A DNA stretch of 64,000 nt, taken from Chloroflexota bacterium. Its GTDB lineage: Bacteria > Chloroflexota > Anaerolineae > DTLA01. How positions within the stretch are numbered: the stretch's first letter is position 1; the number at the start of each line of letters is the position of its first letter. The notes under the pieces were generated by a model. The model had not been told where the DNA came from. It searched no databases and worked only from the letters and a program-made list of their open reading frames with translations. This document shows positions 9,253 through 46,520 of the stretch, piece by piece. The stretch is taken from positions 10,243 to 74,242 of the forward strand of contig JADBJK010000055.1 in NCBI GenBank assembly GCA_014874485.1. The letters run 5' to 3'. The translations under genes and the position numbers were made by a program.

Positions 9253-10347
9253 CTACGCCGCCGCGGGCGCGGGGGCGAACATCCGCTTCCTCAGCGCAAA
9301 CGCCACGTTCACCAGGCCGATCATCACCGGCACCTCAATCAGCGGGCCGATGACGGCGGCGAAGGCCGCGCCCGACTCAATCCCGAAGACCGCCACGGCC
9401 ACCGCGATGGCCAGTTCAAAGTTGTTGCTGGCGGCGGTGAAGGCCAGCGTCGTCGTCTTGCGGTAGTCCGCGCCGATCTTGTGCCCCATCCAGAAACTGA
9501 CCAGGAACATGATCACGAAGTAGAAGACCAGCGGGATCGCGATGCGCACCACGTCCAGCGGGATGGTAACGATGAGGTTCCCCTTCAGGCTGAACATCAC
9601 CACGATGGTGAACAGGAGCGCGCCCAGCGTCATCGGGCTGATGCGCGGCACGAACTGGGTCTCGTACCATTCGCGGCCCTTGGCCCGCATGAGGATGAGG
9701 CGGGTGAGGAACCCGGCGATGAACGGGATGCCCAGGTAGATGAACACGCTCTTGGCGATTTCGCCGATGGTAACGTGCACCACCGTGCCCTGCAGGCCGA
9801 ACCACCCGGGCAGCACGGTGATGAACACGTAGGCGTACACGCTATAGAAGAAGACCTGGAACAGGCTGTTGAACGCCACCAGGCCCGCAGCGTACTCCGT
9901 ATCGCCGTGCGCCAGTTCGTTCCACACGATGACCATCGCGATGCAGCGCGCCAGGCCGATCATGATGAGGCCGGCCATGTATTCGGGATAGGCGCGCAGG
10001 AACACGATGGCGAGGATGAACATGAGGATGGGGCCGATGATCCAGTTCTGCAATAGCGAGAACCCCAGGATCTTCCAGTTGCGGAACACGTCCCCCAGTT
10101 CCTCGTAGTGCACCTTCGCCAGCGGCGGGTACATCATGAGGATTAGCCCGATGGCGATGGGGATGTTGGTTGTGCCCACCGACACGGCCTTGTTGAAGGA
10201 CTGCACGGCGGCGGGGAACAGGTATCCCAGGCCCACGCCCACCGCCATCGCCAGGAAAATCCACAGGGTCAGGAAGCGGTCCAGAACCGACAGTTTTGCG
10301 ACCACACGCGGGGCCGCCGTTGGTGCTGCTGAGACGTTTTCTGCCAT
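9253..10347 (-). CDS. arsB: Arsenite efflux transporter, ACR3 family
   Basis: [27 protein letters not shown]...[25 protein letters not shown]...[13 protein letters not shown] is typical ACR3. Start placed at MAENVS with an AAGGAGAG RBS. Confidence 0.9.
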
Positions 10348-10440
10348 TTGCCTCTCTCCTTGCGTGATATGGGTTGCTTTCCAGGGCAACGCAATCTTCC
10401 GACATGAGCGGAAGCGACCGACAGGAGCGCCGGCCCGGGA

Positions 10441-10683
10441 CTATCCCTCGGCCTCCTTGAGCCAGGCGATGATCTCCTCCTTGCGAGGGATGCGCCCCGA
10501 CGACTTCACCCGGCCGTTGATCACCAGCCCAGGGGTTCCGAGAATCGGGTAGGTCATGATCTCCGCGATGTCGGTTACTTTGACAAACTCGGCCTGGACG
10601 CCGGCTTCCTGCGCGGCCTCGCGGGCCACGCGCTCCAGGCGCAGGCAGTTGGGGCACCCCGTGCCCAGGATTCGGATTTCCAT
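10441..10683 (-). CDS. Thioredoxin-fold small protein (redox-active disulfide protein 2 type, CPNC motif)
   Basis: 80 aa, ILGTGCPNCLRLERV ... GTPGLVINGRV. A GGAGGT RBS precedes it. This family is typically paired with COG0701 permeases. Confidence 0.8.
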   Translation of the reverse strand: MEIRILGTGCPNCLRLERVAREAAQEAGVQAEFVKVTDIAEIMTYPILGTPGLVINGRVKSSGRIPRKEEIIAWLKEAEG

Positions 10684-10712
10684 AGAATCATTACCTCCAT
10701 CAAGTGTTGTGA

Positions 10713-12186
10713 TTACTCGCTCGCGTGGGCCGTCGCTGTAACGCGGCGGTTGCGGCGGTCAATCAAGGCCAGCGCCAGCGCCAGCACCCCAATGCTCGCA
10801 ACCAGATACCCCAGCAACACCAGCGCGCTGGCACCGTCCACCCATGCGCCGTAGATGAGCCCAGACAGCGTGCTGAACAGCGCAACCAGCGCCACGTAGG
10901 TCCAGGCTTTCTTCTTGCCGATAATTTTGGACGTGATGAGAATGCTCTGGAGCGAGAGTTCCGGGTCGGCCATCAGGTAGGCGAGGAGCGGACCGCGGTG
11001 CATTCCCAGGTCCAGGAACATCTTGGCGATGGGCACTTCCACCAGCGTGGGGAAGTACATGAACACGCCGAAGACCACACCCGCGAAGGCGCCCAGGAAG
11101 GTGTTCCGGCCGGCCAGCGTCTGAATCCACTCAGGCTGGATAATGCGGCGGACCATGCCGACGACGAACACGCCCACGATGAGGAGCGGGAATATCTGCT
11201 GCACAAAGCGCCACGTCTCCCAGAGCCACTCCTGGATATCGTAGGGGTCAAAGGCTTTCCAAGCGACGACGCCAATGGCGATCATAGTCAGCGCAACGCC
11301 GAACATCTTGCCCGTGAGCAGGATGTCCAGCCCCCCGGCGTGAGGAACCCAGCCAGCAGCAGCCACGATGAACGTGAGGGCAATGAGGCCCAGCGACACC
11401 CACGTCCACCGGTTGAAGCCCTGGTCCACCTTGCCCAGGCCGCGCCAGGCGGTCAGCCCGATGAGCGCCAGCAGGCCGATAAGGATTGCCCCCTGCGCCG
11501 AGACGCCCTCCTCGCCCTTCGCGGCGTCAAAAGGCACCAGTTGGTACAGGAAGTCCTGGAAACGATCCATGCCGCTGATGGGAAGCGTGATGGTCGCGTA
11601 GGAGTTGGTGAACAGGCCAACCTTCAGCGTACCAGCGATGAGCAGCGCGACCAACAGCAACAGGAAGATGAGCGTCTTGCGATGCAGCGTGGTCTTTACA
11701 TCCATCCCGTTGGTCTCCAGGTCGTGCTGGGCATCGTCCTTGCGGAAGATGAGCGCCATGATCAGGCCGATACCGATGCCGAAGGTAACGGACAGGATGA
11801 TGCGGGCCAGCGCGATGTCGCCGCCAATCGCCACGCCGGTATAGGCCAGGGCCAGGATGTTGCCCGCCGGCGCGAAGAACAGGAACGTCATGGCTGGGCC
11901 CAACCCCGCGCCCTTGCGGTAGATGCCCGCGAATAGCGGCACGATGGTGCAGGAGCACACGGCGAGGACGCTCCCCGCGAGCGCCGCGGCGGGGTAGGAA
12001 ATGTACTTTGGGGTATTCCGGCCCAAAAAGCGCGTGATGGCTTCCTTGGGGACAAGGGCCGTGAGCGCGCCCGCGATGAAAAACGCGGGCAGAAGGCACA
12101 ACAGTACGTGGGCCGCGAGGTACGACGCCAGATTCCCCAGGCCCGACTGCAACAGGTACACGATGTAGTTCAGCGCTTCGGACACG
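10713..12186 (-). CDS. Duplicated-domain permease of the COG0701/ArsP-like family
   Basis: Multi-TM protein carrying the CSCTIVPLFAGIYRKGAGLGPAMTFLFFAPAGNILAL hallmark. Start inferred at a GTG preceded by GGGAGG; the longer ORF in the track has no plausible start context. Confidence 0.75.
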
Positions 12187-12393
12187 AAAGCCTCCCGGAG
12201 TTCTGCGAATGATCCGATGGCGGCAGGCTGCCTGCGATGGGTACCTGGCCGGTGTGAATCATTCAGTTTTCTGAATATTTTATGCGGGCCAGTGGATTTG
12301 TCAAATTCGCGCCCTGCGCGCGTTGCCAATCTGCGAGACCTGGTGTATACTGGGACTCGCAACGAAATGTACAGCATGAAGGAGGGCGCGTCC

Positions 12394-27184: not shown

Positions 27185-27600
27185 CACGAAAGCCACGAAA
27201 GGCACGGAGGGCTTTTCGGGCCTTTCGCGCCATTTCGCGGCTTTCGCGCTCCAAATCCCTGCGGGCGCACGGGTCGCGCAGCGTGCGTCATCGCCTCGCG
27301 CGTGGCGGCCAGCACTTGACCCCAGAGAAAACTGTCCGTTGGCATTGCTTCGCTCGCAATAACGTGGGAAGCACTTGCGACGCACTCGGAGGTGCGCCGC
27401 AAGTGGAAGCATCAGCGAAGCGAAGCCTCTTGGTTAGCGAGATTCTTCGGCGCTCCGCGCCTCAGAATGACAATGTCCTCTGTCATGCTTCGCTTCGCTC
27501 AGCATCTCGGTTGGCGAGATTCTTCGGCGCTGCGCGCCTCAGTAGGGACAATTCATGAATTGTCCCTACGGGCGCTGCGCTCTTCGCAAGGGCATGCCGT
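27185..27600. repeat. Cluster of dispersed palindromic repeats: cacgaaag family, TTGCGACGCACtCGGAGGTGCGcCGCAA palindrome, family-1 element, and GTAGGGACAATTCATGAATTGTCCCTAC REP-like palindrome
   Basis: Direct reading. The same motifs recur at 36380-36600, 40850-41090 and 53356-53385. Confidence 0.85.
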
Positions 27601-27653
27601 CAAGAATCCAAGCGGAGAAGCCCCTGCTCCCCGCCGTCAGGCTGTTCGGCTCG

Positions 27654-29123
27654 TTACCACCGATACCGCACGGTGTAGGTGATCTTGGCCTCGCCGTCCT
27701 TGGGCACGTTCACGCGGAACTCCACGCTGGTGGCGTCCAGTTTGGTGTAGTCGTGGCTCTTGGTCGTAATCTCCCACTCGCTCCAGCGGAACAGGTGCTC
27801 CACCACCCGCACCTCCACCGCCTCGCTCTTGTGGTTGCGGACGCTGATCTCAAAACTCTCCTCAATGGCCCGCTCGCCCAGCGTCTTGAAGTCAGTCTGC
27901 TTGCGCTCGCCCACGATGTCAAAGGCGTCGCCCAGGTACAGGCGCACGCGCTCGTCCTTGGGCGTGTGGTCAATGGCATCCTCGCCCACGAACTCGGTCC
28001 CGCCGCCCGTGTCCTCCTTGTACACGCGCACACGGCCCTTGGGCAGCGGCACGCCCAGCCCGTCGGCCTCGGAGTTCTTGAACTCCACCAGCACCATGAC
28101 CTTCTTGTTGCTCGTGGGGCCGTAGGTGGGGTCGGTGATGGGGCCGTAGTAATACCACGACCCGCCGCCCAGGCCGTCGTACACATAAATCTTCTCGGCC
28201 TTGACGCCTTCCGCGCTCACGAATTCAATCTGCTTGGTCTGCTGGTCCTTCACCGTTACGGGCCGCTGCACCTCGTACAGGTGATACTCAAAGAACTGAC
28301 GCTCGGCCACCTGTTCAGGCGTCGGCGCGAGGCCGGCCTTGCGGGCCAGGTCGTAGGCGGTGAGTTCCTGCGCGGGCTGGACGCGGTGGATGTCGCCGGC
28401 GATGAGTTTCAGCCGCGCGTCCTTGTACGTCGCGCCGCTGCGGTTGTCCACCGTAACCCAGCCGTTCAGCCCCAGCGAGGCGTCGTCGGCGGCCAGCACC
28501 ACCACGTAGTCCGCAGACCACGTGATGCCGCTCGTGAGGTACGTTACTTCCACGTTGTGGGTACCGGACTTGGCCGCGTCCAACTGCCACAGGAGCGACG
28601 GCTTGGTGATGAGGCCCTCGGGGAGCGCCGGAAACTGGAACTCGCGCACCTGATTGGCCTTGACGACGGTTACCTTGCCGTCGGTGCCCTGCAGGATGAT
28701 GTCGTCGGCCCCGCTGAGCAGTTTGCCGGTGTACACGCTCCCATCCTCGGTAACCAGCGTGATCTGCTGGTCCAGGTACTTGTGCAGCAGTTTGGCCGAC
28801 CCCACGACATCGTACTCGTAGTTCTGCTCCAGCACGGTGGTGCCTTCGGGGTCGGTCAGGGAGCGGAAGTGGACCGAGGTGGGGTCAATGCCCGATGCCA
28901 CGTCGGAGAAGCGGACGAAGTTCAGGCCCTTCTCCAGCGTCATCGGTCGGCGGTCTTTCACGAGGCCCAGGTCCGAGTTGTACACCGTCAACTCCACGCC
29001 GGGCGACTCGGCGCGGGCGGGCGTGGGCGATAGCCGCGCCGCCAGGTTGCTGCCGGCGGAACACGCGGCCAGTGCCAGCACCGCCACTACGGACAGAACG
29101 CGAAACCAACGTGCGTATCTCAT
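27654..29123 (-). CDS. DUF4139 domain lipoprotein (mucoidy-inhibitor MuiA-like family)
   Basis: Lipoprotein signal ...LALAACSAG, 489 aa. Start at MRYARWF preceded by GGAGGGA. Confidence 0.75.
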   Translation of the reverse strand: MRYARWFRVLSVVAVLALAACSAGSNLAARLSPTPARAESPGVELTVYNSDLGLVKDRRPMTLEKGLNFVRFSDVASGIDPTSVHFRSLTDPEGTTVLEQNYEYDVVGSAKLLHKYLDQQITLVTEDGSVYTGKLLSGADDIILQGTDGKVTVVKANQVREFQFPALPEGLITKPSLLWQLDAAKSGTHNVEVTYLTSGITWSADYVVVLAADDASLGLNGWVTVDNRSGATYKDARLKLIAGDIHRVQPAQELTAYDLARKAGLAPTPEQVAERQFFEYHLYEVQRPVTVKDQQTKQIEFVSAEGVKAEKIYVYDGLGGGSWYYYGPITDPTYGPTSNKKVMVLVEFKNSEADGLGVPLPKGRVRVYKEDTGGGTEFVGEDAIDHTPKDERVRLYLGDAFDIVGERKQTDFKTLGERAIEESFEISVRNHKSEAVEVRVVEHLFRWSEWEITTKSHDYTKLDATSVEFRVNVPKDGEAKITYTVRYRW

Positions 29124-29270
29124 GTCTCCCTCCTGCGACAGACTGCGGTATATGCGCCTTTGAGACGCCTGCGCAGGGGCGTTTGTTCCGCGAGGCGGCA
29201 TCCCCGCCTTCGGCTTCCTCACGTTCGCGTGTGGTGAGGGGGACCAGGGGTAAGGTAGCCCGCTCTGCGG

Positions 29271-29458
29271 GTGCACTTCAGTTTGGGGACAAGGCTGCTG
29301 CAATGGGCAGTCTCTTTCGCCGCCAGACGTAGGGCGATGGGGTTGCTGGACCTCACCTAACCCCTCCCACACCCTCCCCTTTCCTCTCCGCGGGCGGAGA
29401 GGAAAGGGGAGGGCCGGGGTGGGGATAGGTGAGGTAGATTCTGCGCGAAAACCCAACG
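29271..29458 (+). repeat. Copy B of the about 190-bp C-rich hairpin element seen at 6770-6962
   Basis: About 90% identical to copy A, in the same orientation. It lies in the divergent promoter region between the DUF4139 gene and arsR. Confidence 0.8.
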
Positions 29459-29546
29459 CCATTCGGTAACTCTTGCCCCGAAATGGAAACGCACCTCGTC
29501 CCGCCCGCAACTTGACAAGGCCGCGGCGCGGTGTATCCTACTGGGT

Positions 29547-29924
29547 ATGAGAGCAAGAACGCTGGACAACGGCTATGCCGCCATGGCGAAACTGCACAAG
29601 GTGCTATCCCACCCGGTGCGCCTCCGCATCCTGGAGATGCTGGCCCAGTGCGGGGAGGCGTGCGTGTGCCACCTCACCGCGGCGCTGGGGCGGCGGCAGC
29701 CCTACATCTCCCAGCAACTGGCCATCCTGCGCGAGGCCGGCCTCATCGCCGAACGCCGCGACGGCACGCTCATGTACTACCGGCTCACCGACGAGCGGGT
29801 GATGGACCTCATCGCCGCGAGCCGCAATTGGGCTGCGGCCAAATACGGGGAGTCGGTGCAATTCCCCTCGTCGGAGGAGGGTCCGCTGCCAGGATGTTCT
29901 TGCCCCGTGTGCTCCAGAGACTGA
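29547..29924 (+). CDS. arsR: ArsR/SmtB family metalloregulator with an As(III)-type CVC site and a C-terminal CSCPVC cluster
   Basis: HPVRLRILEMLAQCGEACVCHLTAAL (type-1 ArsR ELCVCDL-like site), wHTH, and C-terminal GCSCPVCSRD. Confidence 0.85.
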   Translation: MRARTLDNGYAAMAKLHKVLSHPVRLRILEMLAQCGEACVCHLTAALGRRQPYISQQLAILREAGLIAERRDGTLMYYRLTDERVMDLIAASRNWAAAKYGESVQFPSSEEGPLPGCSCPVCSRD

Positions 29925-30039
29925 CGGCCTTTACTTTTGCCGCCGAGACATTCAGAACAATGCATATTTGACAGCGGGGCAGCACGGGGTATACTTCAAA
30001 TGGGCAGCACGCCCTGTGCTTACCACCGGGATTGTTGAT

Positions 30040-30115
30040 AGTCTGTCATTGCGAGGGGCGAAGCCCCGAAGCAATCTCCGGCGCGCGAGATTGCTTCGCT
30101 TCGCTCGCAATGACA
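30040..30115. repeat. Family-1 palindromic element (tgtcattgcgaggggcgaagccccgaagcaatctcc...gagattgcttcgcttcgctcgcaatgaca)
   Basis: A near-perfect inverted repeat. The same family occurs at more than 10 loci in this window. Confidence 0.85.
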
Positions 30116-30213
30116 ACAGGCAACTTACTCTGTGGTCAACTACCAGGGCGCCAGCCTAAGGCCATGCCCCATTTCCGAGCCACACCGATGCAAGCGCGCA
30201 GGGAGGATGCACA

Positions 30214-30741
30214 ATGCTGTGCAAGGAGTACGACCTGGAAGTCATCTCGCCACCATGCGATCCGGGATCGGAGCGCTGGAGCGCCTTCGTGCGGCTCCAG
30301 GAGGACATCAGCGAGGTCATGCCCTACCTCAATACACTGTGGAAGAATGCTATCTACGACCATGAAAACCGCATCCTGACGATGGTGCGGGGAGGCCGCC
30401 GCTACACCCTCCGCCCGCACGAGGTGGCCATTAGCAACCTGGAGGACCGCCAGGAGGCCCAGCGCGTGGCCGAGCGCATTTTGGATGAGATCAACAGGGT
30501 GTGGGACAGGCGGCATGAGATCGTGCCTTCCTACGAGAAGCGCCACCAGCCCACCGTGATGGAAATCTACAAACTCCTGCCGGGCGGGAACTGCAAGCAG
30601 TGCGGCGACCCCACCTGCTTCGTCTTCGCCAGCAAACTGGTGGCCGGGACGACGGAACTGACGCGCTGCGTGCGCCTCTACGAAGCGGAGTTCGCCGACA
30701 AGCGAGCGCGCCTGGAGGAGATTCTGGGGTTGGTGGGTTGA
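30214..30741 (+). CDS. Small Fe-S protein with a CX2CX4CX16C (CFeSP/AcsC-type, PF04060-like) cluster motif
   Basis: NCKQCGDPTCFVFASKLVAGTTELTRC has the exact 2/4/16 Cys spacing. GGGAGG RBS. Confidence 0.6.
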   Translation: MLCKEYDLEVISPPCDPGSERWSAFVRLQEDISEVMPYLNTLWKNAIYDHENRILTMVRGGRRYTLRPHEVAISNLEDRQEAQRVAERILDEINRVWDRRHEIVPSYEKRHQPTVMEIYKLLPGGNCKQCGDPTCFVFASKLVAGTTELTRCVRLYEAEFADKRARLEEILGLVG

Positions 30742-30749
30742 GACATTCT

Positions 30750-32675
30750 TTGAAGTCCATAGCCGTGCCCCCAACAAAGTGCCTCTTCCGCCTAGCCGCC
30801 CTGATCGTCATCCTGGCGCTGGCCCTGTTGCCGACGGCCATCCACGCCCAGCAGCCGGTCGTCCGCGCCGTGCTGTTCTACTCGGACACCTGCCCGGTCT
30901 GCCACACGGTGCTGGAACAAGTCCTGCCGCCCCTTCAGGCGCAGTACGGCTCGCAACTGGAAATCGCGAAGGTGGAGATCACCCCGCCGGCGAACTACGA
31001 ACTCCTGCTGCACATGGAGCAGGTGCACGGCGTCCCGCCGGACAAGGGGGTGGTGCCCGAACTGTTCATCGGCGACCGCGTGCTGTTCGGTGCCGACGAG
31101 ATTCGCGACAACCTGCCCGCGCTGATCCAGACCTACGCGGCGCAGGGCGGCGTGGACTGGCCCGCGGGCTACGGCGACCAGGCGGGACCCACCACGTGGC
31201 CGCCCACCGGCGTCAAGCCCACGCCCAAGGCGTGCCATATCTGCGACGAGGGCGACCCCGTCGTGAAGATGTACTTCTTCTGGAGCAGCCTCTGCCCCGA
31301 ATGCCGCCGCGTGCAGGATGAGGTACTCGGGCCGCTGCAGGAGCGGTACGACCGCCAGTTGGTGGTGGACGCCCGCGATGTGGAGAAGTCCCCCGCCGAC
31401 TACGACCTGCTCACGGCGCTGGAGCGGCAGTTCGGCACGGGCGAAGGGGCGTTCCCGGTCATCTTCATCGGCGACCATGTGCTCCATGGCGAGCAGGCGG
31501 CCCGCGAACAGCTGGCCGCGCTGGTGGAATACTACATGAACGAGGGCGGCGTGGATTTCCCCAAACTGACCGGCCCCGCCGCGCCATCGGGCACGCCCAC
31601 CGGCCAGCAGCCCGCCATCCACCTGGCCTACTTCTACCAGGTGGGCTGCCACGAGTGCGACCGCGCCCAGTATGACCTGAAGTACTTGCAGAGCAAGTAC
31701 CCGCAGTTGCAGGTTCACGAGTACGACATCAAGGAGCAGGCCGCGCTGGCTGAGTGGCTGGGCGAACGCACCGGCGTGCCGCTGAACAAGCGCCTCACCG
31801 CGCCCGCGGCATTCGTCGGTTCGGACTTCCTGCTGGGCGGGGACATCAACGCCCAGACGCTGGAGAACGTCGTGAAGAAGTACGCGGCGACCGGCAGCGA
31901 GGCCTACTGGCGGGAGCAGGAAGACCTGTCGCAGGCGGGCGAGAGCATCCTGAGCCGCTTCCGCTCGTTCGGCGCGCTCACGGTCGTGGCCGCGGGCCTG
32001 GTGGACGGGCTGAACCCGTGCGCCTTCGCCACCATCGTGTTCTTCATCTCGTACCTGGCCTTCACGGGGCGCAAGGGCCGCGACATCCTGCTGGTGGGGG
32101 GCATGTTCGCCCTGGGCGTCTTCCTGACGTACCTGGGCGTCGGGGTGGGCCTGCTCAAGTTCCTGGCCAGCCTGCCGTTCCTGCCCGCCATCGGCCGCTA
32201 CCTGTACGGCTTCACGGCGGCGCTGTGCTTGCTCCTGGCGATAGGCAGCCTGTACGACTGGTATCAGGCGCGGCGCGGGCGGCCCGAAGAGATGAAACTG
32301 AAACTGCCCACGCGGATGCGCCGCTGGATCAACCGCGTCATCCGCGAAGGGGCCAGTGCGCGGGCTATCGCGGGGGTTGCGTTCATCACCGGCGCGGTTG
32401 TGTCTCTGATTGAGTTGGCCTGCACCGGACAGGTTTACCTGCCTACCATCCTGTTCGTCCTCGGCGTGCCGGCGTTGAGGGTGCGGGCGTTGGCCTATCT
32501 GCTGGTGTACAACATCGCGTTCGTAGTGCCGCTCGTCATCGTGTTCCTCATGGCCTACTGGGGGACGACATCGGAGCGGCTTGGGCAGTTCATCAACCGT
32601 CGCGCCGGCACCATCAAACTGGCGACCGCAGGGCTGTTCACCCTGCTGGCCGTTTGGATGATCACGTTCCTGTGA
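30750..32675 (+). CDS. Fusion protein: signal peptide, three glutaredoxin/thioredoxin-like CxxC domains (CPVC, CPEC, CHEC), and a C-terminal CcdA/DsbD-type thiol-disulfide transporter
   Basis: Three repeats, each with a CxxC...(V/F)P..FIGD..L.G pattern. The C-terminal 6-TM region carries LNPCAFATIVFF and a second Cys, as in CcdA. Start assigned to a TTG just after the upstream stop. Confidence 0.75.
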   Translation: MKSIAVPPTKCLFRLAALIVILALALLPTAIHAQQPVVRAVLFYSDTCPVCHTVLEQVLPPLQAQYGSQLEIAKVEITPPANYELLLHMEQVHGVPPDKGVVPELFIGDRVLFGADEIRDNLPALIQTYAAQGGVDWPAGYGDQAGPTTWPPTGVKPTPKACHICDEGDPVVKMYFFWSSLCPECRRVQDEVLGPLQERYDRQLVVDARDVEKSPADYDLLTALERQFGTGEGAFPVIFIGDHVLHGEQAAREQLAALVEYYMNEGGVDFPKLTGPAAPSGTPTGQQPAIHLAYFYQVGCHECDRAQYDLKYLQSKYPQLQVHEYDIKEQAALAEWLGERTGVPLNKRLTAPAAFVGSDFLLGGDINAQTLENVVKKYAATGSEAYWREQEDLSQAGESILSRFRSFGALTVVAAGLVDGLNPCAFATIVFFISYLAFTGRKGRDILLVGGMFALGVFLTYLGVGVGLLKFLASLPFLPAIGRYLYGFTAALCLLLAIGSLYDWYQARRGRPEEMKLKLPTRMRRWINRVIREGASARAIAGVAFITGAVVSLIELACTGQVYLPTILFVLGVPALRVRALAYLLVYNIAFVVPLVIVFLMAYWGTTSERLGQFINRRAGTIKLATAGLFTLLAVWMITFL

Positions 32676-32789
32676 TAGCCGCAGCCCGCGAGCGCGGCCC
32701 CGACTTTTGGGAAAAACCGGCGTAACGTGGTATCATTGTGAGTGCGGCGCTGGCCCCGCGATGGGCATCCGGCAGCGGTGCCGCGTAGT

Positions 32790-33005
32790 ACCCTGCCACA
32801 GGGTTTCTGGATGGTGTGTCATTGCGAGGGCGCGCAGCGCCCGAAGCAATCCCAGTCCCTGTCTGTCATGCTGAGCGAAGCGAAGCATCAGCGAAGCGAA
32901 GCATCTCGGTTCACGAGATTCTTCGGCGCTCCGCGCCTCAGAATGACAGTCGGTCCGGGATTGCTTCGCTCCGCTCGCAATGACAACGGGCGGTTTTCTC
33001 TGTGG
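32790..33005. repeat. Cluster of family-1 palindromic elements (two adjacent copies)
   Basis: tgtcattgcgagggcgcgcagcgcccgaagcaatcc ... catctcggttcacgagattcttcggcgctccgcgcctcagaatgaca ... gattgcttcgctccgctcgcaatgaca. Confidence 0.85.
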
Positions 33006-33035
33006 TCTAGCAGCAGTCCACTTGTGAGGTGAAGC

Positions 33036-34109
33036 GTGGCCAAGAAACGCAAGAAGAAACAGACACAGCAGACCCCTCGCCCTGCCCAGTCCGCCGCCAA
33101 GAAGGGCGAGGCGAAGCCGAAACCCAAGAAGAAAACCGCCCCCGGTGCCGGCATCAAGCGCTGGATCGCGCCCGTGGCGTTGGCGCTGGTCGTGGTCGCG
33201 GCGCTCATCACCGCCCAGGCGCTCATCCGCCGCAACGCCGCGCGGCCCACCGGCCCGTGGACCCTCACCATCCTGCACACCACCGACGTGGAGGGCTACT
33301 TAGACCCCTGCGGCTGACGCCCCCCCAAGGGGGGTGTGGCCCGTCGGGCCACCGTCATCAAGGACTACCGCGCCAAGACCCCGTACCTGCTCGTCCTGGA
33401 CGCAGGCGATGCGCTCTTTGGACAGCCGGTCTCTGACATCAGCCAGGGCAAGGCCCTTACCGAGGCGATGGGCCTCATGGGATACAACGCCATGGCCATC
33501 GGCGAGCGCGACCTGGCCCATTTCCCAGAACTCCTGGACCGCTCGCGCGAGGCCAAGTTCGCCTTCCTGTCGGCCAACCTGGTGTACGCCGACTCGGGCA
33601 AGCCGGTCTTCACGCCCTACATCGTGCAGGACGTGGGCGGGCGCAAGGTTGCCATCATCGGCCTGACCCCGGCCGACGATACGTTCAAGTCCTTCGTGCC
33701 GCCGTCAACGAACATCACGGCCAAGGACCCGGTTGAGACCGCCCGCGAGTACGTCGCCAAGGCCCACGCCGACAAGGTGGATGCCGTCGTCATCCTGTCG
33801 CACCTGGGCAACGTCATGGACCGCAAGATCGCCACCGAGGTGAACGGCATCACGGCCATCGTCGGGGGCCACTCCTACGACCTGCTGCAGGAGACGCTGC
33901 AACTCAACAACACCGTCATCGGCCAGGCGGGCTATGGCGGCGAGTGGCTCGGCGAAATCACCGTGGACTTTGACGCCGAAGGCAACGTTACGTCGGCGAA
34001 GGCCGGCGTGATCCCGCTCACCGAGGATTACGCCGACGACCCCGAACTGGCCGCGCTGGCCGCTCGGTACAATGCCGCGCTCCCGCCGACGCCCACCGTC
34101 CAGCCGTAG
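33036..34109 (+). pseudogene. 5'-nucleotidase/metallophosphoesterase-like gene interrupted by an in-frame TGA at 33315-33317 and with degenerate catalytic motifs (pseudogene, or a recoded/Sec gene)
   Basis: The two track ORFs (33036-33317 and 33336-34109) are in the same frame and separated only by TGA: ...HTTDVEGYLDPCG*RPPKGGVARRATVIKDYR... This is homologous to the HTNDxHG...GGxARxATxIK region of UshA-family enzymes. GNHEF is replaced by GERDL. Confidence 0.5.
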
Positions 34110-34985: not shown

Positions 34986-35452
34986 TTGTCATTGCGAGGG
35001 GCGAAGCCCCGAAGCAATCTCCGAACGTGAGATTGCTTCGCTTCGCTCGCAATGACAGATAAGGTGTCTTTGCGAGGGGCGAAGCCCCGAAGCAATCTCC
35101 GAACGTGAGATTGCTTCGCTTCGCTCGCAATGACAGATAAGGTGTCTTTGCGAGGGGCGAAGCCCCGAAGCAATCTCCGAACGTGAGATTGCTTCGCTTC
35201 GCTCGCAATGACAGATAAGGTGTCTTTGCGAGGGGCGAAGCCCCGAAGCAATCTCCGAACGTGAGATTGCTTCGCTTCGCTCGCAATGACAGATAAGGTG
35301 TCTTTGCGAGGGGCGAAGCCCCGAAGCAATCCCACGGGATGCGAGATTGCTTCGCTTCGCTCGCAATGACAGATAAGGTGTCTTTGCGAGGGGCGAAGCC
35401 CCGAAGCAATCCCACGGGATGCGAGATTGCTTCGCTTCGCTCGCAATGACAG
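34986..35452. repeat. Second tandem array of about 6 x 78-bp units of the family-1 palindromic element (variant tttgcgaggggcgaagccccgaagcaatctccgaacgtgagattgcttcgcttcgctcgcaatgacagataaggtgtc)
   Basis: Period 78 bp, with copies starting near 34990, 35068, 35146, 35224, 35302 and 35380. It sits in the convergent gap between the YqeB-like gene (+) and the CN-hydrolase gene (-). Confidence 0.9.
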
Positions 35453-35494
35453 ATGGCAATGCTCTCCGCAGTCAACCACGGGCCGGGCACGCCG

Positions 35495-36379: not shown

Positions 36380-36600
36380 CCAGTTGTCATTACGAGCGAA
36401 GCCAAGCCATCCAGTCGGCCCACGTGCGACGCACCTCGGAGGTGCGTCGCACGTGCCTTCTCACGTCATGCTGAGCAAAGCGACGCATCTCGGTTGGCGA
36501 GATTCTTCGGCGCCCCACGCCTCAGCCCGTAGGGACAATTCATGAATTGTCCCTACGGGCGCTCCGCGCCCTCGCAATGACACACCGTCAAGACTCCCTG
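36380..36600. repeat. Repeat cluster: family-1 element, CGTGCGACGCACCTCGGAGGTGCGTCGCACG palindrome, and REP-like GTAGGGACAATTCATGAATTGTCCCTAC
   Basis: Direct reading. It shares the two palindromes with 27370-27575. Confidence 0.85.
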
Positions 36601-36623
36601 TGGTAGAGTACTACACGGATGCT

Positions 36624-40743: not shown

Positions 40744-41124
40744 GAATTCACCGCAGAGACGCAGAGAACACAGAGGGTAGAGATTGAACTTGAGTTCTCC
40801 GCGCTCTCTGCGCTCTCTGTGGTGCGGTACGGATTTCACCGCGGGGAGCGCGGCGGATTTGGAACACGAAAGCCGCGAAAGGACACGAAAAGGCGCGAAA
40901 ACCTTTCGTGCCTTTCGTGCGGTTTCGTGCCCTCCGTGCTCCGATCTCCGCGCGCTCTGCGTTCTCTGCGGTGCGGTACAGATTTCACCGCGGGGAGCGC
41001 GGCGGATTTGGAACACGAAAGCCGCGAAAGGACACGAAAAGGCGCGAAAACCTTTCGTGCCTTTCGTGCGGTTTCGTGCCCTCCGTGCTCCGATCTCCGC
41101 GCTCTCTGCGCTCTCTGCGGTGAA
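40744..41124. repeat. Composite repeat: two direct copies of about 149 bp (caccgcagag family plus cacgaaag family modules)
   Basis: ggtgcggtacggatttcaccgcggggagcgcggcggatttggaacacgaaagccgcgaaaggacacgaaaaggcgcgaaaacctttcgtgcctttcgtgcggtttcgtgccctccgtgctccgatctccgcg... is repeated at 40821 and 40970. It is flanked by ctctgcgctctctgcggtg palindromes. Confidence 0.85.
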
Positions 41125-41127
41125 GTA

Positions 41128-42333
41128 CTACTCGTACCGCAAGCGCCAGAACCCGAGGCCGAAGAACACGGCGGCGAAGGCCAGCAGCACCCCCGCCTCG
41201 GGCAGGATGCCGCCAACCCCCTGCCCGCGCACGACGATGTCGCTGAACCCGGCCATGGCCCACGTCGTCGGGAATATCCGCACCACCTGCTGGTACACCT
41301 GCGGCGTGATCTCCAGCGGCCACCACGCGCCCCCTAGTGCCGCCATGAGCATGCCGCTGCTGATGGCCATCCAGTTGGCCTGGCTGGGCGTCTTGGCTAC
41401 GGTACCCACCAGCACGCCCAAGGCCACGAACGCCAGCGCGAAGGCCAGCATCATGAGGGCCAGCGCCAGCGGCGACCGTCCCCAGTTGACACCCAAGACC
41501 AGCGCCCCGAACACAATCAACAGCGCCATCTGCACCATGCCGTGGATCAGCCGCCCGCCGATTTTGCCGCCGAGGATGATTTCCCGCCCGACCGGCATCG
41601 CCAGCAGACGGCGCAGCGTCCCCTGCCGCCGCTCATCAATGAAGATGGCGGCCACCCCGATGAGGGGAATGGACACCCACGTAACCAACTGCCCCACCGA
41701 CGACTGTTCGGCAGCGTTGGCGCTGGTGCGGATGACTTCGGGCGCGTAGGTCGTCTCGGCGCGGGCGGGCGGGTTCGCCAGCAGTTCCTGCGCCATCGCC
41801 ATGGCCTGCTGGAAGTACGCCCGTCTCGCCGCCGCGTCGGCGAAGGGGCGTATCCGTTCGGCCTCGGCGACGCTGGCGGTGGCTGCCAGGACGGCGTTGC
41901 TCACCCTGTCCGCCGCGGCGCGCACGGCTTGCTCCACCGCCAGCGCGCGCGTGTCGTTGGGCGCCTGGGTCAGCGTGAGGTCCGACACGCGGCCCGCCAT
42001 CAGCGCCTCGCCGAACCCGGTGGGGATGATGAGCGCGGCGGCCACCTTGCCGTCCTTGACCAGGGCCTCGGCCTCGGCGCGGGTTCGGGCGACCGGCCTC
42101 ACCACATCCGACTCTGCGAGGAGCGCCGTCAGTTGGGACGACAGGGCGCTCGCGTCCTCGTCCGCCACCGGCAGGGTGTAGCGGTTGTCGCCGTCGGAAC
42201 TCCCGCCCCCCGACATCGTAGCGGCCAAGATGAGCGTGAAGATAACGGGCAGGACAAGGAAGAAGATCAGTTCGGACTTGTCCGCGAACCCCATCTTGAA
42301 GTCCAGCCATGCAATCGCAAGCAGTTTTCGCAT
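41128..42333 (-). CDS. ABC-2 type transporter permease
   Basis: N-terminal TM, a large extracytoplasmic loop, and five C-terminal TM segments. Start at MRKLLAIAWLDF. Confidence 0.8.
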   Translation of the reverse strand: MRKLLAIAWLDFKMGFADKSELIFFLVLPVIFTLILAATMSGGGSSDGDNRYTLPVADEDASALSSQLTALLAESDVVRPVARTRAEAEALVKDGKVAAALIIPTGFGEALMAGRVSDLTLTQAPNDTRALAVEQAVRAAADRVSNAVLAATASVAEAERIRPFADAAARRAYFQQAMAMAQELLANPPARAETTYAPEVIRTSANAAEQSSVGQLVTWVSIPLIGVAAIFIDERRQGTLRRLLAMPVGREIILGGKIGGRLIHGMVQMALLIVFGALVLGVNWGRSPLALALMMLAFALAFVALGVLVGTVAKTPSQANWMAISSGMLMAALGGAWWPLEITPQVYQQVVRIFPTTWAMAGFSDIVVRGQGVGGILPEAGVLLAFAAVFFGLGFWRLRYE

Positions 42334-42353
42334 TTCCATCCCTCGCAGCACAA

Positions 42354-43616
42354 TCACGCGTACTGCCGGCGGAAGATGACCGACGCCGCGATGAACAGCA
42401 CCACGGCCAGCGCCAGAAGCCCGGCAATAGGCACGAGCACGTCGCCCAGCGTCCCGCCCGCCGTCAACTTGTTGAACGCGTCCAGGCCCCAGGCGTTGGG
42501 CGTGATGAGCGACGCCGTCCGTATCCACTGGGGCAGGGCCTGGCGGGGGAAGAAGTTGCCGGCCAGCCCGCCGAAGGCCAGCGACAGAATCGTGCCCATC
42601 TGGTTGGCCTGGCCCGCCGTGCGTGCGTAGGCGGCCAGGACCAGTGCCCAGCCTGTAGCCGCCGCGACCAGCGCCAGCGTTACGGGCACCACCGCCGAAA
42701 GCGGGCCGTACTTCACGCCGAGCATGAGCCTGCTGGCCACCAGCAGGATGCCCATCTGGGCGAGGCCCGTCAGGTAGATGCCGCAGACCTTGCCGCCCAG
42801 CACCTGGAACGCGGTTGTGGGCGTCGCGAGCAGGCGGGGCAGTGTGCCCCAGTCGCGCTCGGCGAGCAGGGTCTTGCCGCCGTTGCTCACCGTGAACATG
42901 AGGAACAGGATGGCCATGCTGGGGGCCATGTACGTGAGCCAGTCAAACCCGCCCTGGGGGTCTTCTGCGGCAGTCTCGCCCTTGACCGCGATGAGGCGGG
43001 TCTCGGTGGCCTGGCGCGCCGCCCGCTCGCCGATTTCCATGCCCTTGGTCAGCGCCTCCTGCGGCGCGAGGAGGCCGCTGGCGATGAGTTGCGACACGGC
43101 TACCTGCCCGCCCGCCGCTCCCGCCGAAACCCGGCTGAGGAACTGGTCCACGATGCCGCGCACGATGCCCGCGCTGATGGGACGGTCGGGGTTGGCGTAC
43201 ACTTCCACCACGGCCTGCGGGCGGTTCGCCAGCGCCGAGGGGTCGCCGCTGGCCAGGCCCGACGGCACGATGCTCTCGCTCAGGTCGGCCGGGATGACGA
43301 CCGCCGCCGCGGCCTTGTTGGCGTCCACAGCGGCGCGAGCCGCCGCCTCGTCCGCCGTTACGGTAACGTCCAGCAGGTCGGCCAAATCGGGCGACTGGAA
43401 GGTCTGCTGGAGGTAGCCGCCGAACTCGCCGCCATCGTGATTCACCACGAACACAGGGATTCCGCTGAGGCCGCCCCCGCCGCCGCTCAGGCCGCCAAAC
43501 GCGAACGCCATGACCAGGGTGAGCGCGTAGGGCGCGGCCAGCATGATGATGAGCGCCGTCGGGTCGCGGAATGTGGTAACGAGGTCCTTCCACGCCACGT
43601 TGAGAATCTTGCGCAT
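42354..43616 (-). CDS. ABC-2 type transporter permease (second subunit)
   Basis: MRKILNVAWKDLVTTFRDPTALIIMLAAPYALTLVMAFAF, same architecture as the previous gene. Confidence 0.8.
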   Translation of the reverse strand: MRKILNVAWKDLVTTFRDPTALIIMLAAPYALTLVMAFAFGGLSGGGGGLSGIPVFVVNHDGGEFGGYLQQTFQSPDLADLLDVTVTADEAAARAAVDANKAAAAVVIPADLSESIVPSGLASGDPSALANRPQAVVEVYANPDRPISAGIVRGIVDQFLSRVSAGAAGGQVAVSQLIASGLLAPQEALTKGMEIGERAARQATETRLIAVKGETAAEDPQGGFDWLTYMAPSMAILFLMFTVSNGGKTLLAERDWGTLPRLLATPTTAFQVLGGKVCGIYLTGLAQMGILLVASRLMLGVKYGPLSAVVPVTLALVAAATGWALVLAAYARTAGQANQMGTILSLAFGGLAGNFFPRQALPQWIRTASLITPNAWGLDAFNKLTAGGTLGDVLVPIAGLLALAVVLFIAASVIFRRQYA

Positions 43617-43626
43617 GGCCGACCTC

Positions 43627-44577
43627 CTAATCCCGCAGCGCCCGGCCCGTCAGGTGCAGGAACACGGCTTCCAGCGTCGGCTCCTGGATGTCCACCGAGC
43701 GCACCTTGACGCCCAGTTCGTTGGCTTTCGTGATGACCGGCGGCAGGGCGTCCTCCGCTTCGGGGACGATGAGCACGATTTCGTGGTCGGCTGTGGAGAC
43801 CCGGACCACGCCCGGCACGCCCCGCAGGGCTTCGGCCAGCGGCTCGGCGGCTTGGTCCTCCGCCAAGTGCAGGCGCAGCGTCTCGTGCTCGCCCACCAGC
43901 CGGGTGAGTTCCTTCTGCGTGCCCAGCGCGATCAACTTGCCGTGATCCATGATGCCCACGCGATGGGAAAGTTCTTGCGCTTCCTCCATGTAGTGGGTCG
44001 TGTAGAGCACGGTCATCCCCTCGCGGTTGAGTTCCTTGACCATGTCCAGGATGTTGCGGCGGCTCTGGGGGTCTATGCCCACCGTCGGCTCATCCATGTA
44101 CACGATCTGCGGCTTGTGGAGCAAGCCGACGGCGATGTTGAGCCTGCGCTTCATCCCGCCGGAGAAGGTGCCCACCCTGGACTTGGCCCTGTCGGCCAGC
44201 CCGACCTGCTGCAGGACTTCGTCCACGCGCCGTGACAGTTCCCTGCCGCCCATGCCGTACATGCGCCCCCAGAAGACAAGGTTCTCCCGCGCACTGAGGA
44301 CGTTGTACAGGGCGATTTCCTGCGGCACCACGCCGATGGCGCGCTTGACCGCCATCGGCTCGCGGATGACCGAATGGCCCGCCACGAACGCATCACCTGC
44401 GGTGGGGGCGAGCAGGCAACTGAGCATGGAGATGGTGGTCGTCTTGCCCGCGCCGTTGGGCCCCAGTAGGCTGAAGATTTCCCCCTGCTGGATTTCAAAG
44501 GACACGTCGTCCACGGCCAGGACGTTCTCGGGCATGTACCGTTTGGATAGGTTCTGAACCCGGACTATGGCTGTCAT
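43627..44577 (-). CDS. ABC transporter ATP-binding protein
   Basis: Walker A GPNGAGKTTT, signature LSGGMKRRL, Walker B. Start at MTAIVRV with a GGAGGAG RBS. Confidence 0.9.
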   Translation of the reverse strand: MTAIVRVQNLSKRYMPENVLAVDDVSFEIQQGEIFSLLGPNGAGKTTTISMLSCLLAPTAGDAFVAGHSVIREPMAVKRAIGVVPQEIALYNVLSARENLVFWGRMYGMGGRELSRRVDEVLQQVGLADRAKSRVGTFSGGMKRRLNIAVGLLHKPQIVYMDEPTVGIDPQSRRNILDMVKELNREGMTVLYTTHYMEEAQELSHRVGIMDHGKLIALGTQKELTRLVGEHETLRLHLAEDQAAEPLAEALRGVPGVVRVSTADHEIVLIVPEAEDALPPVITKANELGVKVRSVDIQEPTLEAVFLHLTGRALRD

Positions 44578-44671
44578 TCGCTCCTCCTCACCGTTTGTGT
44601 GCATTCGCGGTTTCTCTCCGTTATGCGATTCTTGGCGGCTGCGCCGCCGGGGGGTTCGCCGGAACGACCGC

Positions 44672-45517
44672 CTACAGCAGACGGGAAATCCACGCGGCGA
44701 TGTCGTCCACCACTTCGCGGGCCACGTTGCCGGCCACGTCGTACTCGGCGGGGTTCGGCTGGCCGCTGCCCGCCATGAACAGGTGGTTCAGGCTGGGGTA
44801 CGACTTGAACTGCACGCCGGAGCGGTCGGCAAGCCCCGCCTTCCACGCCGCAAAGTCCGCCATCGTAACCTGGTAGTCCCGCTCGCCCTGGAGGATGAGC
44901 ATGGGCACGGTCAGCGATTGCGCCGTCGCGACGGGGTCATAGGCCAGGATGTCGGCCCAGTACGCCTTGCCCGCGCCCAGGATCACCTCGCCCTCCTTGA
45001 AGTCCAGCGCCTTGACCCGCTCCACCTGCTGGCGGAGTTCGTCCAGCGCCTGCGCCTCTTCCGGTGCAACCGTGCCGTCCAGTGCGGCCAGGTACTCGCT
45101 CTGCGCCAGCATGAGGTCGGCCAGGTTCCGATTGCTGGCCGCCAGCAGGATGAGGCCCGCCAGGCGCGGGTCGCGGGCCGCGATGCGCGGGGCCACAGTT
45201 CCGCCCAGGCTGTGGCCCAGGACGAACACCCGATGGGGGTCAATGCCGCTGACGCCGCGCAGGTACTCGGCAGCCGCCAGCGCGTCGTTCACAACCTCCT
45301 CGTTGACGGTCAACGTCGCCATGGACGCCATCATCTGGCCGGGGCACTGCTTGGTGCGCTTCTCGTACCGCAGGACGGCGATGCCCCGCGTCGCAAGCCC
45401 CCACGCCAAATCCTTGAACGGCTTGTTGGGGCCGATGGTCTCGTCGCGGTCATTCGGCCCCGACCCGTGCACGAGGACGACCGCAGGGAACGGCCCCGCG
45501 CCCTTGGGCATGGTCAA
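44672..45517 (-). CDS. Alpha/beta hydrolase (dienelactone hydrolase/peptidase S9-like)
   Basis: VVLVHGSGPNDRDE...LGHSLGG nucleophile elbow. Confidence 0.8.
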   Translation of the reverse strand: MTMPKGAGPFPAVVLVHGSGPNDRDETIGPNKPFKDLAWGLATRGIAVLRYEKRTKQCPGQMMASMATLTVNEEVVNDALAAAEYLRGVSGIDPHRVFVLGHSLGGTVAPRIAARDPRLAGLILLAASNRNLADLMLAQSEYLAALDGTVAPEEAQALDELRQQVERVKALDFKEGEVILGAGKAYWADILAYDPVATAQSLTVPMLILQGERDYQVTMADFAAWKAGLADRSGVQFKSYPSLNHLFMAGSGQPNPAEYDVAGNVAREVVDDIAAWISRLL

Positions 45518-46027: not shown

Positions 46028-46252
46028 GGCAGGCTCCTCAATAGCGAATTCCACGGCGCGGAATTGGGGCCATGCCGCGCCGCAGGTACCGCGCACGATT
46101 GTGCCAGAGCCTGGCCTGAGTGTCAAGACGCGGTGAGGCCGGGGCGCGGGGCGAGAACGTTCATCCGCGAATCACACGAATCGGCACGAATAGCGATTCG
46201 CGCCCATTCGCGGACAGCGTCGGCAGAAATGCTCCGCAGGTCAGGCTACGGG

Positions 46253-46520
46253 CCGGGGCGGGGGCGTTTGGAGCGCGAAGGCGCGAAAGACGCGCGGGGC
46301 TGAACCCCGCGCTGAAGGGACAAAGCCCCGTTGGGGCTTGGGTAGCCCGCAGGGCTTCGCCCATTCAGCCCGACGGCTTCAGCCTCGGGCCGGGGGCGCG
46401 AGGCGTTTGGAGCGCGAAGGCGCGAAAGACGCGCGGGGCTAAACCCCCGCGCTGAAGGGACAAAGCCCCGTTGGGGCTGGGGCAGCCCGCAGGGCTTCGC
46501 CCATTCAGCCCGACGGCTTC
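46253..46520. repeat. Two direct copies of an about 135-bp GC-rich unit containing perfect hairpins (gcgcgggg-ctgaa-ccccgcgc)
   Basis: ggcgtttggagcgcgaaggcgcgaaagacgcgcggggctgaaccccgcgctgaagggacaaagccccgttggggcttgggtagcccgcagggcttcgcccattcagcccgacggcttc is repeated. Confidence 0.85.

Follow-up and report, generated by a model that had tools for sequence, protein, structure and literature searches.

We report here that three genes on the plus strand at 29547-32675 of the window, by which we mean the whole 64,000-nucleotide stretch of Anaerolineae (Chloroflexota) DNA that was analysed, appear to form a reduced version of the ars island typical of Anaerolineae. Open reading frame (ORF) calling and motif positions agree on the three genes, which encode a putative metalloid-sensing repressor (arsR), a small Fe-S protein (gene 2) and a predicted exported membrane protein joining three thioredoxin (Trx)-like domains to a CcdA-like membrane domain (gene 3). 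By their promoters, the genes are best described as arsR and, under a promoter of its own, the pair of genes 2 and 3, not as a single operon headed by arsR. The observations comprise the anatomy of the proteins, the conservation of their cysteines, a remote homology to CcdA, the membership of the gene 3 clade in ars islands and a palindrome common to ars promoters; as read from these sequences, the link to arsenic is real but indirect.

We favour, with a probability of about 0.5, the reading that the region specifies a DsbD-like reductant relay released by arsenic, in which ArsR would control expression, gene 3 would serve as the electron conduit and gene 2 as its Fe-S redox partner.

Anatomy and conserved cysteines of the three proteins

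Translation of gene 3 starts at TTG 30750 or GTG 30765 and not further upstream; a public gene caller chose GTG 30765. A signal peptide precedes an acidic region of 378 amino acids that is predicted to be exported. The sequence-only reading had placed three secreted CxxC domains here (CPVC, CPEC and CHEC), and these were confirmed by the signal peptide together with Pfam matches to thioredoxins and glutaredoxins (Grx): residues 1-400 scanned alone scored 34.3 bits for Glrx-like (cutoff 26), 31.5 for Thioredoxin_2 (27) and 30.5 for Glutaredoxin (22.9). Trx-like domain 2 is missing entirely from family members of about 525 amino acids. That reading also depended on the cysteine motifs being conserved; those of gene 2 are invariant in its homologs (39 sequences), as are, among those of gene 3 (41 sequences), the motifs of domains 1 and 3 and the TM cysteines.

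Hydropathy and the positive-inside distribution predict an N-out domain of six transmembrane (TM) helices, with the K/R-rich loops in the cytoplasm. Invariant among the 41 homologs are the motifs DGLNPCAF (C424, TM1) and ELACTGQVYLP (C558, TM4) and the residue C493 (TM3). An hhalign comparison of this domain with seven genuine DsbD_TM proteins encoded beside relatives of gene 3 gave 93.7% probability (E 2e-7, 203 columns), with C424 and C558 aligned to both catalytic CcdA cysteines. Among NCBIfam models, ArsG (NF040495) aligned over profile positions 7-221 of 225 at 16.8 bits against a cutoff of 200 (E 0.0035); a genuine CcdA, that of locus L083, also reached just 46.5 bits with this model. 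The match of TsoB to gene 3 was weak and fragmentary. An hmmsearch of PDB sequences with the gene 3 profile returned weak thioredoxin matches only and no CcdA or DsbD chain. We conclude that the TM domain of gene 3 probably represents a divergent branch of the DsbD superfamily, outside the curated CcdA, DsbD and ArsG families.

An exhaustive profile search for this TM domain yielded a family of about 3,800 clusters at 50% identity. In nearly all cases thioredoxin-like domains, in varying number, precede it on the N-terminal side, and some proteins have an AhpC/TSA domain after it; recognised partner domains are thiol-oxidoreductases in every case, at the N-terminus, the C-terminus or both. Among distant members, P0285, P0336 and P0359 combine the TM domain with a C-terminal AhpC/TSA-Redoxin domain in a DsbD-like sandwich architecture, and others have very long N-terminal regions with HEAT repeats (1274-1517 amino acids).

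Gene 2 encodes an N-terminal alpha/beta domain of about 110 residues, which includes C15, followed by a C-terminal 33-residue Fe-S domain that matches PF04060 at residues 122-153 (43.3 bits, cutoff 23). The exact CX2CX4CX16C spacing noticed earlier was borne out (C127-x2-C130-x4-C135-x16-C152), and by this motif the domain is of the [4Fe-4S] type; all four cysteines, as well as C15, are invariant in the 39 homologs. An AlphaFold2 (AF2) model of the protein had a pLDDT of 91.8. Foldseek matched it to the N-terminal Fe-S domain of corrinoid iron-sulfur protein (CFeSP; 4djd_C, 2ycl_A) over 54-57 residues at 39-40% identity, with a root-mean-square deviation of 1.4 Å on the Fe-S domain of 2ycl_A. 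The N-terminal domain gave weak TBP-like matches (E > 0.1).

The description of gene 2 as CFeSP-type thus holds for the Fe-S domain and fails for the protein. We rejected an assignment to the CFeSP large subunit (AcsC/CdhE), since the score for NF003195 was 53 bits (cutoff 306), with an alignment confined to profile positions 3-55, and the protein has 175 amino acids and no corrinoid domains. Gene 2 is like AcsC/CdhE and RnfB in the CX2CX4CX16C spacing of the N-terminal [4Fe-4S] domain of these proteins (PF04060); unlike AcsC/CdhE, it lacks corrinoid-binding and TIM-barrel domains and has the unrelated N-terminal domain of TBP-like fold with its invariant cysteine. Homologs carry the JGI label 'ArsR family metal-binding transcriptional regulator'. 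We did not adopt a role as a transcription factor, given that no helix-turn-helix (HTH) domain was found in gene 2, the TBP-like matches were weak and OGG1, whose N-terminal domain also has a TBP-like fold, was among them.

ArsR belongs to the ArsR/SmtB family according to PF01022 (HTH_5; 51.3 bits, cutoff 22) and NF033788 (95.6 bits, cutoff 55). Its cysteines are at positions 35, 39 and 41 (ACVCH) and 117, 119 and 122 (GCSCPVC). C39 and C41 form the CVC motif in alpha3 that is the motif of the type-1 As(III) site, and the C-terminal tail carries CSCPVC, a CxCxxC motif. Both clusters, reported in the sequence-only reading, are conserved in the ArsR proteins of related Anaerolineae ars islands; among those with a C-terminal Cys tail, 10 of 11 retain CVC. 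The protein resembles type-1 ArsR (R773/E. coli) and C-terminal-Cys ArsRs of the AfArsR type in its winged-helix HTH_5 domain, its alpha3 CVC and its C-terminal-tail Cys cluster. It differs from them in combining both clusters, and from R773 ArsR (ELCVCDLC) in having no third alpha3 Cys; its candidate operator is ATTCA-N6-TGAAT.

Transcription units, candidate operator and ars-island context

The distance between arsR and gene 2 is 290 bp. We consider the two to belong to separate transcription units because this spacer holds a near-consensus promoter and the hairpin of a 78-nt repeat; the single ArsR-controlled three-gene operon proposed earlier was abandoned, as gene 2 has a promoter of its own (Table 1). 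This promoter is identical in a 98%-identical relative (Anaerolineales bacterium Kow00123, locus L087). The -10 box of arsR ends 7 nt before the ATG, and the arsR mRNA is therefore likely to have no leader or a very short one.

Immediately 5' of the gene 2 promoter lies an imperfect palindrome, ATTCAGAACAATGCAT, and a perfect one of the same class, ATTCAGAAAACTGAAT (12276-12261), directly follows the promoter of arsP (TTGACA-16-TAAAAT) in a second ars cluster of the window. Since the pattern was derived from these two sites, a count within the window would be circular, and enrichment was scored on 80 independent loci and with permuted half-sites as controls. In those loci, 8 of 18 occurrences of the ATTCA-N6-TGAAT class lay no more than about 210 bp upstream of ars-type genes, that is, in 5% of the sequence (binomial p 1e-6), as compared with 13 of 192 for the permuted controls. 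Several occurrences are 25-60 nt ahead of arsR genes. This is good comparative evidence that ATTCA-N6-TGAAT is a clade-specific ars operator, and its enrichment upstream of ars genes in independent loci supports control of gene 2 and gene 3 by ArsR as a separate transcription unit. The metalloid link suggested earlier can thus be upheld through the comparative ars context and an operator-like palindrome common to arsP and to ars promoters of independent loci.

The second ars cluster (9253-12310, minus strand) lies about 18 kb from the arsR unit and comprises arsP, an ArsE-like gene and acr3. As no regulator gene adjoins it, the ArsR encoded at 29547 may control it in trans.

In the 98%-identical relative, the gene order is ArsR-FeS-Usp-75aa-ArsC(LMWPc)-[gene 3]. 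The gene 2-gene 3 junction consists of 47 unrelated bases in the window (30742-30789) versus 1.95 kb in the relative (1463-3416 of L087), which hold an LMWPc-type arsC besides a gene for a 299-residue Usp protein and a 75-residue ORF; gene 3 itself also differs over its first ~13 codons. From this comparison, the tight adjacency of genes 2 and 3 in the window is apparently a strain-level indel.

At least 586 species-level genomes contain relatives of gene 3; essentially all are metagenome-assembled genomes of Anaerolineae/Chloroflexota, to which the family is nearly restricted among named matches. Many genomes have two or more paralogs. Analysis of neighbouring genes and a neighbour-joining tree of 80 gene 3 loci resolved context-coherent groups. 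The window's gene 3 falls into a clade embedded in ars-type islands, apart from a group that follows sufC-sufBD and from another that precedes alaX-like and MBL genes. As judged from their neighbours, most family members are housekeeping paralogs adjoining suf or alaX genes, and the family appears to be the version of DsbD of this lineage. The paralogs of one clade are encoded on the strand of sufC and sufBD-like genes and immediately 3' of them (L044, L048, L052, L056, L058, L064, L068, L076, L077, L080 and others), which hints at a link between an envelope thiol relay and Fe-S cluster assembly.

Within the ars islands, representative orders are ArsR-ArsP-4x Thioredoxin_3-Trx_2-DsbD_TM-[gene 3]-LMWPc(ArsC)-Acr3 (L083) and ArsR-Pyr_redox_2-GCV_H-DGC-DGC-OsmC-2x Thioredoxin_3-[gene 3]-FeS(PF04060)-Acr3 (L085). 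The Thioredoxin_3 proteins of the islands correspond to NCBIfam TIGR00412 ('MTH895/ArsE family'). The best NCBIfam matches for the ArsC-type and Acr3 proteins were both below cutoff (TIGR02691, 100-118 bits against 174; Acr3, 256 bits against 283), and the ArsP_1 proteins also weakly matched Cu/Zn-efflux and SaoE models. All homologs of gene 2 that we inspected are located in ars-type islands, often adjoining a gene 3 homolog; in L004, L005, L016, L072 and L089-L092 they lie directly beside it, in either order. Related islands (L085 4745-8212, L004 55-2006, L016 3667-7131, L089 4964-6275) repeatedly carry a module that comprises a Pyr_redox_2 flavoprotein, GCV_H, a pair of DGC proteins (PF08859) and OsmC, and L089 additionally has genes for a small MtrA-like protein (PF04208) and a ferredoxin.

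Table 1. Positions in the window of the three-gene region, its promoter elements and the second ars cluster
Feature	Position	Strand	Details
acr3, Acr3-type (SBF family) arsenite efflux permease	9253..10389	-	second ars cluster
Thioredoxin_3 / TIGR00412 'MTH895/ArsE family' protein	10441..10683	-	93 bits, cutoff 62
arsP, ArsP-family permease	10713..12185	-	GTG start at 12185 likely; second ars cluster
Perfect palindrome ATTCAGAAAACTGAAT	12261..12276	.	same class as 29950-29965; abuts arsP -10 box TAAAAT (12282-12277)
arsR promoter, sigma-70-like, TTGACA-16-TATCCT	29512..29539	+	10/12 matches
arsR, ArsR/SmtB-family repressor, 125 aa	29547..29924	+	HTH_5, NF033788, two Cys clusters
Candidate ArsR operator ATTCAGAACAATGCAT (ATTCA-N6-TGnAT)	29950..29965	.	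2 nt 5' of the -35 box of the gene 2 promoter
Gene 2-gene 3 promoter, sigma-70-like, TTGACA-16-TATACT	29968..29995	+	11/12 matches
78-bp palindromic repeat copy (REP/MITE-like hairpin)	30041..30121	+	in gene 2 5' leader; -46.9 kcal/mol, z = -6.0
Gene 2, 175-aa cytoplasmic protein	30214..30741	+	PF04060; GGAGG ribosome-binding site 7 nt upstream
Gene 3, 641 aa from TTG 30750	30750..32675	+	alternative GTG start 30765; signal peptide, three Trx/Grx-like domains, CcdA-like 6-TM domain
Trx/Grx-like domain 1, CPVC (C48, C51)	30855..31154	+	invariant across the gene 3 family
Linker CHIC (C162, C165)	31233..31244	+	semi-conserved as C-H/K-x-C-D-E
Trx-like domain 2, CPEC (C182, C185)	31251..31544	+	CxxC kept wherever the domain is present
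Grx-like domain 3, CHEC (C300, C303)	31611..31904	+	in invariant GCxECxR; membrane-proximal
6-TM domain, remote DsbD/CcdA-superfamily relative	31962..32672	+	hhalign, hydropathy, invariant Cys motifs

Proposed relay and rival explanations

In the relay that we favour, ArsR would bind ATTCA-N6-TGAAT at the gene 2 promoter and at the distant promoter of arsP-arsE-like-acr3. As(III) or a similar soft metalloid would occupy the cysteines of the CVC and CxCxxC motifs and release ArsR, whereupon genes 2 and 3 would be expressed. A donor in the cytoplasm would reduce the TM1/TM4 cysteine pair of gene 3 (C424, C558), and from there electrons would pass to the exported CxxC domains, to membrane-proximal domain 3 first and then to domains 1 and 2. 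These domains could hold the thiols of the extracytoplasmic space in their reduced state, undo adducts of As(III) with dithiols, or act as reductants of arsenicals outside the cell. Gene 2, as a cytoplasmic [4Fe-4S] protein with an extra invariant Cys, would most likely supply electrons as a redox partner, either to the thiol relay or to the small ArsE-like thioredoxins. The parts of this scheme that we infer are the regulator that binds the palindrome, the inducer, the direction in which electrons flow, the substrate and what gene 2 does. An outward shuttle of thiols or reductant had been suggested from the sequence alone, and it is probably still the most economical reading of the N-out 6-TM topology, the TM1/TM4 cysteines, the exported CxxC domains and the fusions to AhpC/TSA or Trx domains.

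A number of findings weigh against this relay. At gene 2, the palindrome sits upstream of the -35 box and not over the -10 box, and inspection by eye of the arsR promoter (29512-29539 region) revealed no ATTCA-N6-TGAAT palindrome. The arsR-gene 2-gene 3 unit of the window is devoid of canonical ars genes, with neither an ArsB/Acr3 pump nor ArsC encoded within 29547-32675. About 55 of the 80 gene 3 relatives are located in non-ars contexts (suf, alaX/MBL), which argues that the ancestral role of gene 3 was general. A gene 2 homolog lies near gene 3 in only about 10 of the 80 loci (fetched flanks of up to 8 kb) and one ars island, L088, has gene 2 but no gene 3; the pair is thus not obligate, and the three genes together are not a conserved entity. 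For the TM domain, neither Pfam DsbD_TM (PF02683) nor DsbD_2 (PF13386) matched at E <= 10, nor did they match any of the 41 members, so that the CcdA/DsbD membrane conduit of the sequence-only reading survives as a remote homology (hhalign, 93.7%) and not as a Pfam assignment. The AF2 model of this domain was poor (pLDDT 68), and its Foldseek matches were noise, with no structural match. Moreover, the one ars-linked CcdA-like protein that has been characterised, ArsG, is by its NCBIfam name an efflux permease and not an electron conduit.

This last point bears on the view that gene 3 is a thiol-assisted transporter of arsenicals. Its TM Cys pair would bind and move trivalent (organo)arsenicals as proposed for ArsG, and the exported CxxC motifs would be acceptor or chaperone sites, in a manner like MerP/MerT for Hg. 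Of the NCBIfam models, only ArsG, named 'aromatic aminobenzylarsenical efflux permease', aligns with the TM domain over its whole length, gene 3 relatives in ars islands are encoded beside the transporters ArsP and Acr3, As(III) is classically bound by CxxC motifs and vicinal thiols, and the presence of a separate, genuine Trx-CcdA pair next to gene 3 in L083 could mean that gene 3 does something different. At 16.8 bits against 200, however, gene 3 is not a member of the ArsG family, and the suf and alaX housekeeping paralogs as well as the fusions to AhpC/TSA-type reductases point to redox chemistry as the function of the family. The ars context alone cannot discriminate between conduit and permease; we favour the conduit because of these housekeeping paralogs and redox-domain fusions, and regard the transporter as unlikely. 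The same paralogs raise the alternative that gene 3 is a general extracytoplasmic disulfide reductase or isomerase of the DsbD/CcdA-ResA-like housekeeping kind, that gene 2 is an unrelated redox protein and that the arsenic context is incidental here. The majority of loci without ars neighbours, the genomes with two or more paralogs, the absence of arsC, acr3 and arsP from the unit and an arsR promoter that is separate and lacks the palindrome would all agree with it. Yet the window's gene 3 groups with ars-embedded relatives and not with the suf or alaX clades, arsC is found inside the unit of the 98%-identical relative, and the gene 2 promoter bears the palindrome that marks ars promoters. 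In addition, no cytochrome c maturation genes were among the 12 recurrent neighbour clusters that were read (SufC, SufBD, MBL, AlaX-like, DsbD_TM, Trx, ferredoxin and others) or the clusters matched with ars seeds (ArsR, ArsP, Trx_3, Acr3, FeS), although not all of the 40 top clusters of the 80 loci were identified and no ResB/CcsA seed search was made. We find this alternative quite unlikely, and we rejected the related assignment of gene 3 as a CcdA of cytochrome c maturation because no such genes were among the recurrent neighbours identified.

A response to some other thiol-reactive stress, be it from reactive sulfur species or sulfite, from Hg, Cd or Sb, or from oxidants, is a doubtful proposition. 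It would make ArsR a redox or persulfide sensor resembling BigR, with genes 2 and 3 restoring the thiol balance of the envelope. Sulfite-sensing BigR is indeed the second-best NCBIfam match of ArsR, and TsoR matches too; related islands carry OsmC, GCV_H, DGC and Pyr_redox_2, which are not arsenic-specific, and the weak matches of the ArsP_1 proteins to Cu/Zn-efflux and SaoE models point in the same direction. But BigR scored 67 bits against a cutoff of 155, ArsC-type reductases and Acr3 recur in the same islands (as best matches below cutoff), and CVC is a classical As(III)/Sb(III) site. Equally doubtful in our view, and proposed by analogy, is a more far-reaching form of the relay in which genes 2 and 3 would constitute a dedicated arsenic-induced extracytoplasmic thiol system independent of thioredoxin reductase. 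Here the [4Fe-4S] cluster and C15 of gene 2 would drive disulfide reduction with electrons from ferredoxin, in the manner of ferredoxin:thioredoxin reductase or Hdr, and feed the CcdA-like domain, so that on the outside of the cell the three exported CxxC domains could serve to reduce arsenate, or to strip or sequester As(III). If true, this would be an ars function without a characterised precedent.

Comparison with known systems and further features of the window

Fusions of Trx and CcdA domains (DsbD, DipZ) are classical, and ars determinants composed of CcdA and thioredoxin were reportedly later named ArsEFG by Chen, Zhang and Rosen in 2019. Determinants consisting of 'CcdA + thioredoxin + redox-active disulfide protein 2' had been noted in ars operons in 2010 (Castillo & Saier, PMC2963123). 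Based on the NCBIfam names TIGR00412 ('MTH895/ArsE family') and NF040495 ('ArsG'), PMC9144182 and a preprint on strain ND132, their components go today by the names ArsE and ArsG. Arsenic raises the expression of a module of this type, an ArsR-ArsP-ArsE(PF13192)-DGC operon, in P. mercurii ND132 (bioRxiv 10.1101/2022.10.17.512643). The suggestion that the system has no described equivalent was therefore dropped, in view of the determinants in PMC2963123, the ArsE/ArsG names and the DsbD/DipZ fusions; nothing about it is categorically new, and this kind of system has been noted before.

Like ArsEFG-type determinants, the region combines a membrane protein of the DsbD superfamily with Trx-fold CxxC proteins in ArsR-controlled ars clusters, and the exact ArsEFG parts (Trx_3/ArsE-like, Trx_2, DsbD_TM) are present beside gene 3 in related Anaerolineae islands. 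In contrast to ArsEFG, gene 3 has three Trx-like modules, which are exported and fused N-terminally to a far more divergent TM domain (below the ArsG cutoff and with no Pfam DsbD_TM match); it co-occurs with a discrete Trx-CcdA pair in L083 instead of replacing such a pair, and it is accompanied by a PF04060 Fe-S protein. With DsbD, CcdA, DipZ and ScsB it shares the 6-TM core, the cysteines in TM1 and TM4, the N-out orientation and the fusion to extracytoplasmic redox domains. Its motifs DGLNPCAF and ELACTGQVYLP, however, are not those recognised by the Pfam DsbD models, its three N-terminal Trx/Grx-like domains take the place of the Ig-like alpha and C-terminal gamma domains of DsbD, and, unlike DsbD/CcdA, it shows no link to cytochrome c maturation among the recurrent neighbours identified, within the limits of the neighbour survey given above. 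TsoR/TsoB (NF045707, NF045694; TsoB being a rhodanese/DsbD-fusion selenoprotein) is similar in pairing an ArsR-family regulator with a DsbD-type fusion membrane protein, with weak matches in the window (49 bits versus a cutoff of 115, and 15 versus 805), but the window's proteins have neither a rhodanese domain nor selenocysteine.

What is new here is the combination of three exported N-terminal Trx/Grx-like domains with a TM domain that Pfam does not recognise, the expansion of this architecture throughout the lineage and its pairing with a PF04060 protein. The membrane domain of gene 3 defines a large family outside the coverage of Pfam. One of its clades has been co-opted into ars islands, where it is accompanied by a conserved Fe-S protein and by ArsE-like mini-thioredoxins in arrays. 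The exported, fused version with three CxxC domains argues that at least part of the CcdA/thioredoxin chemistry of ars systems takes place outside the cytoplasm. Experiments could start simply from the candidate operator ATTCA-N6-TGAAT and from the strain-level indel, with versus without usp-arsC.

The 78-bp palindromic repeat in the gene 2 leader is present there in one copy in the window and in two copies in L087. Elsewhere in the window it occurs in tandem arrays of about six units and as single copies (1538-1997, 34987-35454, 30044-30121 and scattered, for example, at 27400-27620 and 36480-36605), and its spurious translations read 'SLRAKRSNL...CHCERSEAIS'. A GC-rich, near-perfect hairpin of about 84 nt lies at 29350-29435 between a DUF4139 gene and arsR. 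Rfam searches over 29300-33100 gave sub-threshold miRNA-like matches, on both strands for the 29350-29435 hairpin, which we rejected as artefacts of palindromic-repeat hairpins. The DUF4139 gene upstream of arsR (27654-29126, minus strand) probably starts at the lipoprotein-like 'MRYARWFRVLSVVAVLALAACSAG' and not at the start of the 618-residue ORF, the long extension of which runs through the hairpin repeat. Three more tandem repeats, each of about two copies and with periods of 140-151 bp, lie at 13534-13866, 40796-41122 and 46241-46520. Another strain-level indel is located at 40784-44687, where about 3.9 kb of the window are without a counterpart in the otherwise collinear, 97-98%-identical relative (L087 13347 to 13692).

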